This document shows positions 23,366-28,462 of a DNA stretch of 64,000 nt, piece after piece. Position numbers and translations under genes: made by a program. Under the pieces are notes generated by a model. That model worked only from the letters and a program-made list of their open reading frames with translations. It made no database searches and was not told the origin of the DNA. The number at the start of each line of letters is the position of its first letter. Position 1 is the stretch's first letter. Source of the DNA: Planctomycetota bacterium (GTDB lineage Bacteria > Planctomycetota > UBA8108 > SXIK01); contig OZ244999.1 in assembly GCA_965223265.1 (NCBI GenBank), positions 1,504,001 to 1,568,000 on the forward strand, written 5' to 3'.

Positions 23366-26056
23366 CTAACGTCGGGTATCTGTGGCGTGGACCGACGATG
23401 GCTCCAGGAGAGACCGGATCGTGTCTAGGAGCTTTTGCGCATCGACCGGTTTGCTCAGGTATGCGTCCATACCTGCGCGGAAGCAAGCCTCTTGGTCTCC
23501 GACGACGGCGTTTGCTGTCAGCGCGATGATCGGCAGCCTTCGACGCTGGGACGGGGACGCTTGAGCGGGGCGCACGTCCTCTGCAGTGCGAATCTTGCGT
23601 GTCGCCTCGAGCCCGTCCATCTCTGGCATCTGGCAGTCCATAAGGACGAGGGCGTACTCTGTGTTCGCCACCGCCTCCACTGCCTCCCGTCCGTTCGTGG
23701 CAACGTCACACGAGTACCCAGCCGACTGCAGCATCGCGATCGTAACGATTTGGTTGACCTCGTTGTCCTCGACGAGAAGAAGCTTGGCATCGAGGCAGGC
23801 CGTCTCGTCTGGCGCGGGCGTGTCGGATTTCTCGCTGCACGAGGACCCCGACAGACAAACGTCACGTAGGACGCTCGAGAGGTCGTCCTCTCGGACCGGT
23901 TTGCTTAACGAAGCAGCAAAATTTAGCTCCTTTGCTGCCTGGTCTGTCAGGTCGTGTCCCGGTGTTAACACTACCAGAGGCGTGTGTTGGATTTCGGGTG
24001 ACCGCCGAATCACCTTGGCCAATCCAACGCCGTCCATATCTGGCATGTTTCGATCGATCAGAGCCACCGAGAACTCTCGATGACTGTCTACTGCGCTCCG
24101 CAGGCGAAGCAGTGCGAGCTCTGCGTTGTTGACTGCGTCAACTTCGACTCCCCAAGCCGCGAGTCGATCGCCGATCGCGGCACGCTGCGCTGCGTTGTCG
24201 TCGACAACGAGAACGCGGATCCCCCGAAAATCTTTTGGCAACGTAACGGAGTTTTCGCTGTTCGACGCGGCACATCCGAACGTAATCGTACACCAGAATC
24301 TGGAGCCGACCCCAAGCTCACTATCAACGCCGATCTCTCCCCCCATCAGTTCAACAAGTTTCCTTGAGATCGCGAGTCCCAAGCCCGTGCCGCCGTACTT
24401 ACGTGTGGTGGATGCATCGATTTGACGAAACGACTGAAAGAGACGTCCACGTCGCTCATTGGGAATCCCGATGCCAGTATCTCTCACCTCGAACCGGACC
24501 TGAGTATCGGCTGCTTCGCGATTGGTCACTTGAACATCGACACAGATTTCACCCGACGTCGTGAATTTGCTCGCATTGTTCAGCAGGTTTGACAGCACCT
24601 GGCGCAACCTCACGCGATCTCCCTTCACGATCGTTGGGACATCGGGAGCGATGGAACAGATCAGCTCGACGTTGCGCTCAGACGTCGCCTTGGCGAACGA
24701 AGTCACTACGTCTTCTACTACAGTGCGTAGATCAAACGGGGCACGTTCGAGTTCCATCTTTCCCGACTCGATCTTTGAGAAATCGAGGACGTCGTTGATG
24801 AGCTTGAGTAAGTCGTCGGCTGACGATTTGACCACGTCGCAATATTGACGCTGCTTTGGATTCAGCTCCGTTCTGAACAGCAGTTGGAGCATGCCGATGA
24901 CTCCGTTCATCGGAGTACGGATTTCATGGCTCATGCATGCGAGAAACTCGCTCTTGGCGCGATTGGCGGCGTCAGCCGCGCGGGCTGCCTCCTTTTCACT
25001 TGCCACGAGAGCCTGAAGGCGCCGCGCCATGGCATTGAACGAGGTCGACAGCTTGCCGAGCTCGTCTCGAGAGTTTTCGGCGACGGAGGCTGTAAGGTCG
25101 CCTCGTGTGATGGCTTCGGAGGCTAGCATCAGCTCGTTGACTGGCTCCGAAAGTCTGTCGGCGATCCAGCGACTGACGACGAGAGCGAAAGCGGCCGCGG
25201 AGAGGCCACCGATGACCAACCAGATCCAAGCCTGCTCGTAGAGTGCTGTGACCGTTGCCAAAGACTTGCATAAAATGACCGTGAAGTTCTGATCCTTCAA
25301 CGCGATGGGAATTGCGAACGAGTCACCGTCCGCCATGCGTATCCTAAATGGAGATTGTCGTTCACTTGAGTGGTGGCTATGACGGAGCGCCGCTGCGAGT
25401 AGTTCTGGATGTGGTTCCTCGCCTGAGTCAACCTCCCATGACCTGGCTACGATCTGGCCATCGCCAAAGATGAGGACGTTTCTGCCTGTCACAAGGCGGG
25501 CTTCATCGGAGAAGGCAGAGTCGACCGGATCACCGACGGCCAGTACGCCGACGATCTGGGCGTCGACCACGATAGGGACAAGGGCAACGAGAAGGATGTT
25601 GCCGCGGTATTTCCAGAGGCCTGTGAACTCGCTGCCCGCCAGAGCGACTTCGACGCCAGGTAACGTTTGTAGGTTGTCCCCGGTGCTTGCGGAGTTCGAA
25701 GCGTCGGCGAGAAGTCGACCTGTGTTGCCCATGACGACAGCAAACGGCGCGTTCGCGAGTTCGCGCGCCTCAGTTGCCGTGTGGAACACCGTCTCATGGT
25801 CGACGCTCGCGATGTTCATGACTGCCTTGAGGTATGGAGTCTCCGCGATCGCCCGTGCTTTTCCAACGAGGAGCTCGTAGCGAAGAGAGAGGAATTGTTC
25901 ATAGGATCGTCGACCTTCGTGAAGATTTTCGGCGACCTCCTTCTCCGCGAATCTCTCGATGACGATGCCGATTGCGCTCAACGCGAACAGCGTCAGCGAC
26001 AGCACGACGACTCCCATACCGATGAACAGCTTGGTGCGAAACGAAAACGCGCTCAC
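23366..26056 (-). CDS. Membrane hybrid sensor histidine kinase (TM-Cache-like-TM-HAMP-HisKA-HATPase-REC-REC)
   Basis: [36 protein letters not shown], and two receiver domains (VLVVDDN...[20 protein letters not shown]...[10 protein letters not shown]). Confidence 0.96.
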
Positions 26057-27087
26057 CGATACTTTCCCGGATACGGTTTGCCGAACTTATTTTTGTGCTT
26101 GATCGTTCTCGTCTTTTCGCGTGTTTGGAGATCGAGGCGTGTCAGAGTCGACTTCGAGACGGTGATTTCCTGTCGACTCGTTGCACCCCGTTCGTTCCAC
26201 GTGCGCATCGTGTACCGTCCATCGGGAACCTCGGTCAGGAGGAAGAATCCATCTTTGTCGGTGGTCGTGAAATAGGGGTTGTTCAAGACGATGATCGAGC
26301 AACTCATCTGGGGGTGAATATTGCAGAAGACCCGGACGACGCCGCTTTTGGAGAAGGTGACGGACCGCGTTTTTCCAGGCTCGTAGATGTTGAGATCGAA
26401 TGGACGTGCCTTCGACAGCGAGAAGACATTGTGAAACACTGTGTCGTCGTTGGGGAACTCGACAGTAGTTCCCTTGAGGATTGGTAGTACACTCGGAAGG
26501 AATCGACGTTCCTTCTGAGAGACCGACGGCCGTTGTCGAGAAGGATCGAACTTTCCCGGCACGCCGTCGAGGAAGACGACGACGTCTGAATGATCGCTGC
26601 GTCTCTGTCCGTCGTACGTCAGGATTTCCACTTTGCCGTAGATGGTGTTCTCTTCTGCCGGGAACAGCCCGATCTTCTCGTTGTTGCTACGGATTCTTAC
26701 GTGGCATGAGACGCAGCTTGTACGAATCTTCTGGATGGTGCCGCCGGGATCGGCGTTCGATCGAAGAGTCAGGTCCTGTGCTAGGTTCGCGATGACCTGG
26801 AGTTCTGCGCGCCAGCTTCCTGATCGTGGATCAATCTCGGATCGTGATTGCAGTGCTACCGTCGCGGCAGCGAAGAGTGATTCCGCATGCGTTGAGGCCT
26901 TGTCTGGTTGGCCTCTCGAAAGACTTTCCTCAATGGCTTTGAACGCGACAGAAAACTTCTTCATCAAGTGCTGATCGGCGTTCGCTGCTTCGTCTCTGGT
27001 GTGTTCCTTGATGGCAGGCTCTTCGGTCGCTACCGCAGTTGGCAGAAGGAGTAGGAGTGCCGGCACAATCGGCCACGCTTTTCGCAT
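26053..27087 (-). CDS. Periplasmic fusion of a helical c-type cytochrome (cytochrome c'-like) domain and a cupredoxin-like 'methylamine utilisation' domain
   Basis: Signal peptide from ATG 27087; helical domain ending in CVSCH (about 26701-26715); then [40 protein letters not shown]; stop overlaps the kinase start (GTGA). Confidence 0.85.
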
Positions 27088-27112
27088 GATCAATTCACTC
27101 CTCCACACAGGG

Positions 27113-28462
27113 TCAGAAGCTGAGGACGACTTCTGCACCGGCCAACCAACGGTCGTCGTCGCCAGGGCTGAATGGCGAGGCTCGAACGACCTCGAAGCGG
27201 TCGCCTCCAACCTCGGCCTTGAGGAGAACGTTTGGATTCGGGCGCCAACCGATGCCCAGCGAAAGTCGTTGAAAGCGCCTTGTGTCGTAGCCGAAGGCAG
27301 CATTGCCGCCTGCGGTGATCTTGCCGTCGGCGTGATAGCCGTCACCGGAGTCGTACGTACCGATCTCGCTGTAGCGTAGCACTCCGTAGATCGTTCGAGT
27401 GAAGTTGTATAGAGCTTCGACAGAGAACCAGAGGATGCGTCTGTCGAACGTGGAGTCGCGATCGTCGACGAATGCTTGGCCAAACGAGGCGGCCAAGTAG
27501 GCGCGATCGTCCCATGACACCTTGGCGTCGAGTTCATAGAGGAGCGCGTCCACTTTGCTACTATTGCTTGAACCCACCGTTGAGACGTGGGATGCCCCTA
27601 CCGGCTGGAAGTGACTGCCACCAAACTCGAAAGCGCTCTTTTCTGCTTTGCCGTTTCTCATGAAGCTGGCGCTGAGGTAGAGGGATTCGCAAGGATTTCC
27701 CCACACCTTCACGTTCACGGCCTTATCCTTGTTGTCTTCGACACTTCGCGCGTCGGTGCCGTCCGTCACGGCTACTAACCAGCCCACTTCGCGCGCTTTT
27801 CCGTAGAGCAGGATGCCTTCGTCGAATCCGTATGGGTACGCAGCAGAGTTGGTGATGAGAGGATTGTCCGAGGAGTCTTGCCAGAGATACTCCTCGCCGA
27901 ACGGGATGTCGATTCTACCAACCTTGATTCCGAGGAGATCGTCTCCCCAAGCTTTCAAAACGTTGCGAAAGTGAGCGTTGACCTCTCCGGTCCGAACGAA
28001 CAACGAGTCGTCTTTGCCGAGACGATTTGTTTGTACCTCGAAGAAGAGGGAGATGTCGTTCCATACGTCGGCCGAAAGAAACAGTGACGCTTCTTTGAGG
28101 AGGAAGCCGCCATCGGGCCTCAGCGCGTCTTTTCCCGTCGCTAAATAGTCGAAGGCACCAAAGCCGGCGATGCCGAAGTTCTGGTACCACGGTCTCGACA
28201 GGGGGTGTGAATCACCGGACTGTTCAAGGTCGTCATAGGTGACGTTCTCCTCGGACAGATCGACCTCTTGCGGCACACCGTCAGCTTCGGCAGACTCCAA
28301 GGCTTCGACCCGTTCGCGCAGTTCTTTGAGCTCGGCCCGAACGGCCGGCGGAATCTGCTCATCGGGTGTACTGGTTGCCGGGAGCGCGGGAGGGCCTCCA
28401 GCGACCAAGGAGGGCGTCGTCGCGCTTATGATCAACGCACAGCTGAGAACGTGCCGATGCAC
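27113..28462 (-). CDS. Outer-membrane porin-like beta-barrel with an N-terminal coiled coil
   Basis: Signal peptide, ELKELRERVEALE coil, KVGRIDIPFG, DNKDKAV, amphipathic strands, terminal EVVLSF. Confidence 0.8.
   Translation of the reverse strand: MHRHVLSCALIISATTPSLVAGGPPALPATSTPDEQIPPAVRAELKELRERVEALESAEADGVPQEVDLSEENVTYDDLEQSGDSHPLSRPWYQNFGIAGFGAFDYLATGKDALRPDGGFLLKEASLFLSADVWNDISLFFEVQTNRLGKDDSLFVRTGEVNAHFRNVLKAWGDDLLGIKVGRIDIPFGEEYLWQDSSDNPLITNSAAYPYGFDEGILLYGKAREVGWLVAVTDGTDARSVEDNKDKAVNVKVWGNPCESLYLSASFMRNGKAEKSAFEFGGSHFQPVGASHVSTVGSSNSSKVDALLYELDAKVSWDDRAYLAASFGQAFVDDRDSTFDRRILWFSVEALYNFTRTIYGVLRYSEIGTYDSGDGYHADGKITAGGNAAFGYDTRRFQRLSLGIGWRPNPNVLLKAEVGGDRFEVVRASPFSPGDDDRWLAGAEVVLSF

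Follow-up and report, generated by a model that had tools for sequence, protein, structure and literature searches.

Why is a predicted periplasmic protein with both a c-type heme and a blue-copper site encoded between an outer-membrane porin and a membrane-bound sensor kinase? This question is raised by three adjacent genes on the minus strand of a 64,000-nucleotide stretch of a Planctomycetota genome (contig OZ244999.1, positions 1,504,001 to 1,568,000; hereafter, the window), which encode, in this order, a barrel protein, a heme-c/type-1-copper fusion protein (the copper-heme protein), and a hybrid histidine kinase with a putative Cache-type periplasmic sensor domain. An earlier note, made from the DNA letters alone, had proposed that the three gene products form a heme-copper relay that reports the redox or gas state outside the cell to the kinase. 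The analysis described below led us to keep the redox part of this proposal and to give up the gas part. We assign about an even chance to the interpretation that the copper-heme protein is a periplasmic redox accessory that is read by the Cache sensor, such that the operon would constitute a redox-sensing input module.

Judged by sequence and predicted fold, the 344-amino-acid copper-heme protein would be a two-center, one-electron carrier. A signal-peptide-like N-terminus (residues 1-20) is followed by a four-helix heme-c domain, a cupredoxin domain, a CarboxypepD_reg-type beta-sandwich, and a conserved tail at the C-terminus; neither the beta-sandwich nor the tail had been noticed in the earlier note. 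The motifs that the note had pointed out are present in the translation, with C125-V-S-C128-H129 ending the helical domain, followed by H219-N-V-F and C255-N-I-H258-P-Q-M261, and they are conserved. When the query was aligned with 40 of the 120 listed homologs (41 sequences in all), residues M42, C125, C128, H219, C255, H258, and M261 proved invariant, and H129 is conserved at ≥90%. The AlphaFold2 (AF2) model built on this alignment (mean predicted local distance difference test score [pLDDT] 89.6; predicted template-modeling score [pTM] 0.84) and the placement of the ligand residues fit a heme-c/type-1-copper fusion.

Homologs of the copper protein are numerous, with 2764 found at E ≤ 0.001 in a word-indexed search; an exhaustive search gave 12040 representative clusters at the same threshold and 375 at E ≤ 1e-30. 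Their source names are "plastocyanin", "plastocyanin/cytochrome c556", "cytochrome c", or "hypothetical", and the ESM Atlas returned only sibling clusters of the same family, one of them auto-named "Methylamine utilization protein family protein". To determine gene neighborhoods, one genome per species was scanned, and 80 loci out of at least 588 confirmed stretches were analyzed by six-frame hidden Markov model (HMM) searches. According to their record titles, these loci come from KSB1, Neomarinimicrobiota, Gemmatimonadota, Planctomycetota, Latescibacterota, Omnitrophota, Binatia, Myxococcota, Acidobacteriota, Gammaproteobacteria, Spirochaetota (Turneriella), Armatimonadota (Fimbriimonas), and Oligoflexia, and they span at least a dozen phyla. 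The earlier note had stated that its idea would fail if the genes did not occur together elsewhere; they do. A homolog of the kinase's periplasmic sensor domain is encoded at 73 of the 80 loci, and at 54 of the 57 loci for which at least 2 kb of upstream and 2.5 kb of downstream DNA were available. The sensor gene lies directly downstream on the same strand in 49 cases, one gene further downstream in 13, and upstream of the copper-protein gene in 11.

The downstream sensors of 31 loci share a dCache_3-type domain and a HAMP domain and differ in their cytoplasmic outputs, which comprise 13 histidine kinases, 4 hybrid kinases, 4 SpoIIE/PP2C phosphatases, 6 Ser/Thr kinases (one with a cyclase), 2 CheA-like proteins, and 2 others. 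Cyclic di-GMP (c-di-GMP) enzymes of the GGDEF-EAL type also occur among the sensor outputs, and genes for partner switching (STAS, HATPase_c_2) are found close to the sensors of the SpoIIE type. Only the input side of the sensors is conserved. The pairing of a copper protein with a periplasmic Cache domain is thus kept whatever the output, a pattern characteristic of an input module that works with an accessory protein. Moreover, since several of the outputs do not regulate transcription, the arrangement fits poorly with that of a regulator encoded beside its target genes.

The pairing also held in reverse, when the search started from the sensor. Across 301 genomes from the window's phylum, we paired the strongest sensor-domain matches with copper-protein matches and with the nearby DNA. 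The copper-protein family occurs in 33 of these genomes at E ≤ 1e-25, and the sensor-domain family in 20 at E ≤ 1e-10. Among the ten genomes with the strongest sensor matches, a copper-protein gene was found within ≈3 kb of the sensor domain in eight (G000, G191, G069, G105, G244, G155, G060, and G152) and was not found near it in two (G236 and G195). The host genome contains a single copy of the sensor domain, which adjoins its single copper protein with the C-terminal tail. In this tail, H331, K334, and Y343 are invariant in the 41 sequences, a conservation on par with that of the metal ligands; across the 80 loci, the His is kept in 79, the Lys in 76, the Gly in 75, and Y339 in 77, and the tail lay outside the patterns used for the scan. 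It is missing from the two own-genome paralogs that were checked and from 12 relatives without an adjacent sensor. Ten of the 12 genomes inspected that carry such tail-less copies lack any sensor-family match, and in the other two (G302 and G179) the match is on another contig.

The earlier note had called the third gene product a Cache/HAMP hybrid kinase. Its cytoplasmic part agrees with this description, as Pfam matches place a HAMP domain at residues 297-349 (E 9.5e-14), HisKA at 367-432 (E 1.1e-22), HATPase_c at 479-591 (E 3.2e-30), and two receivers at 607-731 (Receiver_CRE1-like) and 760-880; Response_reg scores E 5.5e-40, with two stretches of the protein matched. There is no Pfam match to an Hpt domain in the kinase, and neither a regulator gene nor an Hpt gene lies alongside it. 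The kinase core scores best against models of BarA/TorS/LuxQ-type hybrid kinases, under their cut-offs. The Cache part of the description comes from relatives of the kinase. Of 31 homologous sensor domains in the related loci, 17 match dCache_3 (PF14827) and 3 match CHASE4, and we assign the window's sensor domain, through these homologs, to the putative dCache_3 type; a PDB sequence search with this domain gave no real match. In five clusters from Acidobacteriota and a gammaproteobacterial metagenome-assembled genome (MAG) (L037, L042, L053, L061, and L063), a gene for an OmpR-type regulator (Response_reg plus Trans_reg_C) is present.

The helical domain, with helices at residues 27-57, 61-81, 87-107, and 114-132 of the AF2 model, had been assigned a cytochrome c' layout by the earlier note. 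The helical build with a C-terminal CxxCH was borne out, but the best match is to cytochromes b562 and c556. Cytochrome b562 chains are matched by the family profile (A1) along their entire length (E 1.1e-06), such that Met42 falls on the axial Met7 of b562 and the CxxCH on that of engineered cb562, whereas cytochrome c' chains match more weakly and only over the last 50 residues, in the C-terminal half (E 1.1e-03). The window protein thus resembles b562/c556 in its four-helix bundle, in the predicted heme attachment near the C-terminus, and in a Met that aligns with the axial one. Because of the full-length b562 match and the invariant Met42, which is probably the sixth ligand beside His129, we consider it likely that the heme is six-coordinate with His/Met ligation, of the c556/b562-like electron-transfer type. 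Our confidence in this assignment is limited because some cytochromes c' also carry a nearby, non-ligating Met. PF01322 (Cytochrom_C_2) gave no match to the window's protein at E ≤ 0.1 and is precomputed for 15 of the 120 listed homologs. The CxxCH is conserved wherever the heme domain is present, as the earlier note required. Covalent attachment of the heme is plausible in this host because its genome has two Cytochrom_C_asm (CcmC/CcmF-like) matches 6 kb apart, which indicate a Ccm-type heme-attachment system; ResB was not found in the search of the host genome. We know of no other fusion of a class II cytochrome domain to a cupredoxin.

These features also bear on gas sensing, in which a five-coordinate, c'-like heme would bind NO, CO, or O2 and the change would be relayed through the copper to the kinase. 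A four-helix bundle with a C-terminal CxxCH is also the layout of cytochromes c', and among the VIA matches to the heme domain are cytochromes c' at Z 12.1 (2ccy) and Z 11.4 (6a3k), as well as the anammox class II pair Kusta0087/88 (6r6n, Z 13.4), which binds NO. However, helical-bundle Z-scores of this size are common background, and b562 fusions reach Z 10.5-10.9; some homologs are named "cytochrome c556" by their sources; and the full-length b562 alignment with Met42 on Met7 makes a vacant NO/CO site unlikely. Furthermore, 69 of the 80 loci have no fused heme domain yet retain the sensor, which implies that the heme is not the primary receptor of the family. The earlier note had also supposed that the fused heme replaces a truncated globin encoded in related clusters. 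No globin turned up among 155 neighbor proteins of related loci (21 + 25 + 109), a census that was not exhaustive, as it left out open reading frames (ORFs) below 90-95 amino acids and genes beyond ≈4 kb. We regard gas sensing as very improbable.

The second redox center lies in a domain that matches Copper-bind at residues 194-266 (E 0.0021; 18.9 bits versus a cut-off of 21.2) and Cupredoxin_1 (E 0.012; 16.1 bits versus 27), and that scores far under the cut-offs of the NCBIfam equivalogs for plastocyanin, pseudoazurin, and amicyanin. Since it falls below these curated cut-offs, the domain is best assigned, from its sequence, to a divergent family of the cupredoxin superfamily that is none of the named carriers. 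The AF2 model (pLDDT 95-98 across the domain) has the Greek-key beta-sandwich fold expected of a cupredoxin. Foldseek matches include plastocyanin 1bxu (TMt 0.81; root-mean-square deviation [rmsd] 2.1), purple cupredoxin 5fc9 (TMt 0.77), and amicyanin (TMt 0.70-0.74), and pseudoazurin is also among the structural matches. VIA matches reach Z 12-13.6 at rmsd 1.3-1.8, with the copper nitrite reductase NirK 6hbe (Z 13.6) on top and amicyanin 1aac at Z 12.4. The residues fit a type-1 ligand set of His, Cys, His, and Met, and copper binding is predicted. The fold, the ligand set, and the short C-x2-H-x2-M loop are those of the amicyanin/plastocyanin/pseudoazurin group, the loop being of the amicyanin type, and a plastocyanin-like N-x5-H-N motif precedes the first His. 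Unlike those carriers, the window's cupredoxin shares its chain with a cytochrome, a beta-sandwich, and a tail, and it is paired in the genome with a sensor instead of with a dehydrogenase, a photosystem, or a nitrite reductase. Heme c and a cupredoxin are likewise combined in one chain, for intramolecular electron transfer, in three-domain copper nitrite reductases and in subunit II of caa3 oxidases, but these chains have a class I cytochrome c and a catalytic center, whereas the window protein has no catalytic domain. The beta-sandwich that follows gave a VIA match to domain II of carboxypeptidase D (1qmu, Z 11.4). In four homologs of 817-1154 amino acids (P0176, P0177, P0182, and P0184), the query cupredoxin is matched in 7-9 separate stretches, indicating tandem arrays.

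A cupredoxin site could instead serve copper itself, either by binding it reversibly, with copper admitted by the porin and the apo or holo state read by the kinase, or by buffering copper under regulation by the kinase. That the His/Cys/His/Met site is the most conserved feature, that a dedicated porin is encoded upstream, and that metal-handling cupredoxin-like proteins are among the VIA matches (EfeO 7wgu and FtrB 8vuk, each Z 10.9) is consistent with this alternative. It is at odds with the full type-1 electron-transfer set in an amicyanin-type loop and with the recurrence of heme proteins (fused, multiheme, and di-heme peroxidase), which points to electron transfer, and the neighbors scanned included no gene for copper resistance or copper export. 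We consider a role in copper sensing or handling quite unlikely.

The first gene product, which the earlier note had read as an outer-membrane barrel, has a signal-peptide-like N-terminus, a coiled-coil-like helix (residues 39-56), and then a beta-barrel. It has no Pfam or NCBIfam match and no real match in a PDB sequence search. Its AF2 model, which is of moderate confidence (pLDDT 67.8; pTM 0.68), has ≈16-18 long strands, and Foldseek found 305 PDB matches to it at E ≤ 0.001, led by OprP (2o4v, E 2.8e-13), OmpT, the chitoporin VhChiP, Omp32, and DcaP (6eus), with OprO also matched. The best fold match is to OprP/OprO/DcaP, and the helix ahead of the barrel resembles the N-terminal coiled coil of DcaP. 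From this model we read the protein as a putative solute porin of the OprP/DcaP kind rather than an electron conduit; its selectivity cannot be deduced, because identity to OprP/OprO/DcaP is 11-14%, Pfam gives no match, and the pLDDT is 67.8. Barrel genes of three families occur at 47 of the 80 loci, with 14 loci of the window type, 18 of an acidobacterial type, and 16 of a myxobacterial type that matches Pfam BBP2 (one locus falls in two families). The window-type homologs (32-62% identity) are encoded immediately ahead of the copper protein. A barrel gene of any family is upstream in 46 loci and downstream only in L078. Common origin of the three families was considered and is not supported, as hhalign gave probabilities of 42.6% for A2 versus A4, in the coiled-coil region only, and 15.1% for A2 versus A5. 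One contig labeled as a Bifidobacterium breve MAG (L074) carries an Acidobacteriota-like cassette of barrel, copper protein, and sensor and is probably mis-binned.

The conserved order of a barrel followed by a redox protein, together with MtrC/F-like multiheme cytochromes in myxobacterial loci, would also suit the "trans-envelope" label of the earlier note if this is taken to mean a conduit in which the porin and the heme-copper protein form an MtrAB/Cyc2-like complex that moves electrons through the outer membrane. However, a barrel of this size resembling OprP, OmpT, and DcaP lacks the room to enclose a folded 35-kDa protein, MtrB having ≈26 strands; the barrel protein contains no CxxCH; and at 33 of the 80 loci, the retrieved DNA encodes none of the three barrel families. 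The chance that the cassette encodes such a conduit appears slim.

Heme partners recur around the copper protein in several forms. The fused cytochrome is a minority form, with an in-frame CxxCH in 10 of the 80 loci and one in another frame in L008, giving 11, all within the 14 loci that have the window-type porin. In L008 (positions 5602-6300; Latescibacterota), the cytochrome domain with its CxxCH and the cupredoxin are in different frames, which reflects an assembly frameshift or a real split. Six myxobacterial-type loci encode a multiheme cytochrome of ≈400 amino acids (Cytochrome_C7/C554, MtrC/F-like), located between the copper protein and the sensor where inspected, and a di-heme peroxidase protein of the CCP_MauG type is encoded in 12 myxobacterial-type loci. 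An extended cassette of CCP_MauG, BBP2-like barrel, copper protein, multiheme cytochrome, and dCache_3-HAMP-SpoIIE protein is seen in L013, L022, L027, L052, L066, and other Myxococcota. The host genome has four distant paralogs of the copper protein that keep the copper ligands, and no sensor lies within 1.5 kb of any of them. One tail-less paralog (L084; G000:C1:8064878-8068297; ORF 1414-2493, minus strand) is followed immediately by an ORF for a 395-amino-acid protein (169-1356, minus strand) with two CxxCH motifs, typical of di-heme cytochrome c peroxidases. This adjacency suggests that the wider copper-protein family may donate electrons to di-heme peroxidases.

Because tail-less paralogs adjoin a peroxidase away from any sensor, the copper-heme protein might be a metabolic electron carrier for a periplasmic or outer-membrane reaction on a substrate admitted by the porin, with the Cache sensor genetically linked, binding this substrate or another ligand alone, governing no more than expression or activity, and making no contact with the copper protein. 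Electron transport is the classical role of cupredoxins and class II cytochromes, Cache domains commonly have small molecules as their ligands, and Acidobacteriota clusters include an OmpR-type regulator. Yet no oxidoreductase is conserved in the window-type cassette, which consists of three genes between unrelated flanks; the Ser/Thr kinase, PP2C, CheA-like, and c-di-GMP outputs do not act on a neighboring promoter; and it is the periplasmic domain of the sensor in particular that is conserved as the copper protein's partner. We consider this alternative unlikely, though the strongest of the rivals.

We return to the copper-heme protein as an accessory of the dCache_3-type periplasmic domain of the neighboring kinase. 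Its oxidation state would be set by periplasmic electron donors and acceptors, possibly by a small solute let in by the dedicated porin; its redox state would alter its contact with the Cache domain; and the signal would pass through the HAMP domain to the kinase core and on to the two receivers. Redox state is the most economical choice of signal given the electron-carrier build and the repeated heme partners, and the frequent porin suggests that the ultimate stimulus is a small outside solute. Candidate stimuli are a redox-active metal and the supply of an electron acceptor or oxidant, for which the myxobacterial loci hint at peroxide acting through a di-heme peroxidase.

Several points weigh against this interpretation. 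Its support consists of gene order, folds, and conserved residues, from which we infer cofactor loading, protein contact, redox read-out, and stimulus. A type-1 copper site bound tightly in a cupredoxin barely changes shape on reduction, which makes a read-out of redox state hard to picture, and a dedicated porin could equally fit a small-molecule stimulus that binds the Cache domain directly. The window kinase's own sensor domain has no Pfam Cache match at E ≤ 0.1; among the models that the earlier note had proposed for the window proteins, cupredoxin gave a sub-threshold match, and dCache_3, like Cytochrom_C_2, gave none at that cut-off. Only T89 and G175 are conserved at ≥90% in the sensor-domain alignment, and this scarcity of invariant residues gives no hint of an interface. 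The retention of all four copper ligands in 80 of 80 loci is partly circular, as the scan patterns contained them. Finally, the tail was rejected as the sole sensor-docking element because it is missing from five sensor-adjacent copper proteins (G069, G105, G244, G060, and G152).

A bolder interpretation, which we hold only tentatively and think somewhat less probable than not, is that blue copper proteins have an unnoticed signaling role, such that this multi-phylum family would be the primary receptor of a class of Cache sensors, with heme partners fused or alongside. The Cu(I)/Cu(II) state would then reflect electron flux outside the cytoplasm, or an oxidant or reductant entering through the porin, and the signal would feed into two-component, Ser/Thr-kinase, partner-switching, c-di-GMP, and chemotaxis pathways.

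The layout of the locus (Table 1) bears out the tight linkage of the three genes that the earlier note had described. Besides the short first spacer, the GTG start of the kinase gene and the TGA stop of the copper-protein gene share a GTGA overlap. The start of the copper-protein gene was placed at the tabulated ATG rather than at the upstream ATG of the long ORF because GGAGGAG precedes the former and a signal-peptide-like stretch follows it.

Table 1. Features of the porin/copper-heme protein/kinase locus, in window positions (position 1 is the first letter of the window).
Feature	Positions	Strand	Remarks
Outer-membrane porin gene (P0002), 449 aa (amino acids)	27113..28462	-	ORF; stop TGA 27115-27113
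Intergenic spacer, 25 nt	27088..27112	-	ribosome-binding-like GGAGGAG at 27104-27098, read from sequence
Periplasmic heme-c/type-1-copper fusion protein gene (P0001), 344 aa	26053..27087	-	ATG at 27087; TGA 26055-26053
Predicted four-helix-bundle cytochrome domain, residues 27-132	26692..27009	-	Met42 codon 26964-26962; C125xxC128H129 at 26715-26701
Predicted cupredoxin domain, residues ~184-268	26284..26538	-	codons H219 26433-26431, C255 26325-26323, H258 26316-26314, M261 26307-26305
CarboxypepD_reg-like beta-sandwich, residues 270-321	26125..26280	-	PF13620 E 1.1e-05, 26.1 bits, cut-off 32.3
C-terminal tail, H331-K-N-K334-F-G336-K-P-Y339-x3-Y343	26059..26097	-	conservation
Hybrid sensor histidine kinase gene (P0003), 896 aa	23366..26056	-	GTG start at 26056
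Kinase periplasmic sensor domain, residues ~34-270	25247..25957	-	between hydrophobic segments ~8-32 and ~272-295

The flanking genes, for a CBS-pair protein (22808-23305) and a PBP_like_2 protein (28665-29807), are unrelated and on the opposite strand, so the porin, copper-heme protein, and kinase genes form a self-contained three-gene unit. A search of positions 22800-29000 for sigma-70 promoters and intrinsic terminators found none above shuffled expectation and none sensibly placed. The G+C fraction is 0.557-0.571 across 24001-28000, compared to 0.589-0.630 in the other 30 bins of the window. The complete cassette is present in identical gene order in a relative of the same taxonomic order (G009), which is the sole one of 40 relatives with a match at E ≤ 1e-20. 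This patchy occurrence and the dip in G+C suggest that the cassette may be horizontally mobile or acquired.

Elsewhere in the window, Asp-rich "DANGDG..D" motifs of a dockerin/EF-hand-like kind occur in two large proteins that look secreted (20431-22473, minus strand; 32655-34616, plus strand), one of which has a Cohesin match and the other FG-GAP repeats. The product of 29964-30665 (plus strand) is a Nudix protein that also has a winged-helix domain of the NrtR type (NrtR_WHD E 3e-26) and is likely a regulator of NAD metabolism, and the next gene but one after it (31736-32677) encodes a product without a Pfam match.

The closest parallels to a soluble periplasmic protein encoded beside a membrane kinase with a PAS/Cache-like periplasmic domain are LuxP-LuxQ and TorT-TorS. 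The conserved adjacency of accessory and sensor that marks such systems is found here too (73/80 and 54/57 loci; 8 versus 2 genomes in the reverse check). Accessory proteins of the LuxP/TorT type bind ligands and have a periplasmic-binding-protein fold, whereas the putative partner here is a heme-c/blue-copper redox protein. The pairing also resembles H-NOX-HnoK and NosP-NahK, in which a cofactor-bearing accessory is paired genetically with signaling proteins whose outputs vary between genomes; those systems are cytoplasmic, sense gas at heme b, and have no copper, porin, or Cache domain. A full-text literature search, judged at the level of its listings, found no description of a copper protein paired with a Cache sensor. 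The parts belong to known superfamilies, and we file the combination as a putative accessory-dependent sensor with a blue-copper/heme redox protein as its accessory.

Redox sensing outside the cytoplasm is poorly understood beyond a few heme-PAS and quinone-linked examples, and, to our knowledge, cupredoxins have been regarded purely as electron carriers. The co-occurrence of copper protein and sensor in many phyla suggests a form of redox sensing outside the cytoplasm that has not been described. The family comprises thousands of sequences in Acidobacteriota, Myxococcota, Planctomycetota, Marinimicrobia, KSB1, Gemmatimonadota, Latescibacterota, and others. The small size of the three-gene cassette makes the idea directly testable in vitro. 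If it is correct, a Cache domain whose "ligand" is a redox protein would be a new sensory principle, many genes now labeled "hypothetical", "plastocyanin", or "methylamine utilization protein" would gain a function, and the cassette would represent a modular, genetically portable switch from redox state to phosphorylation.

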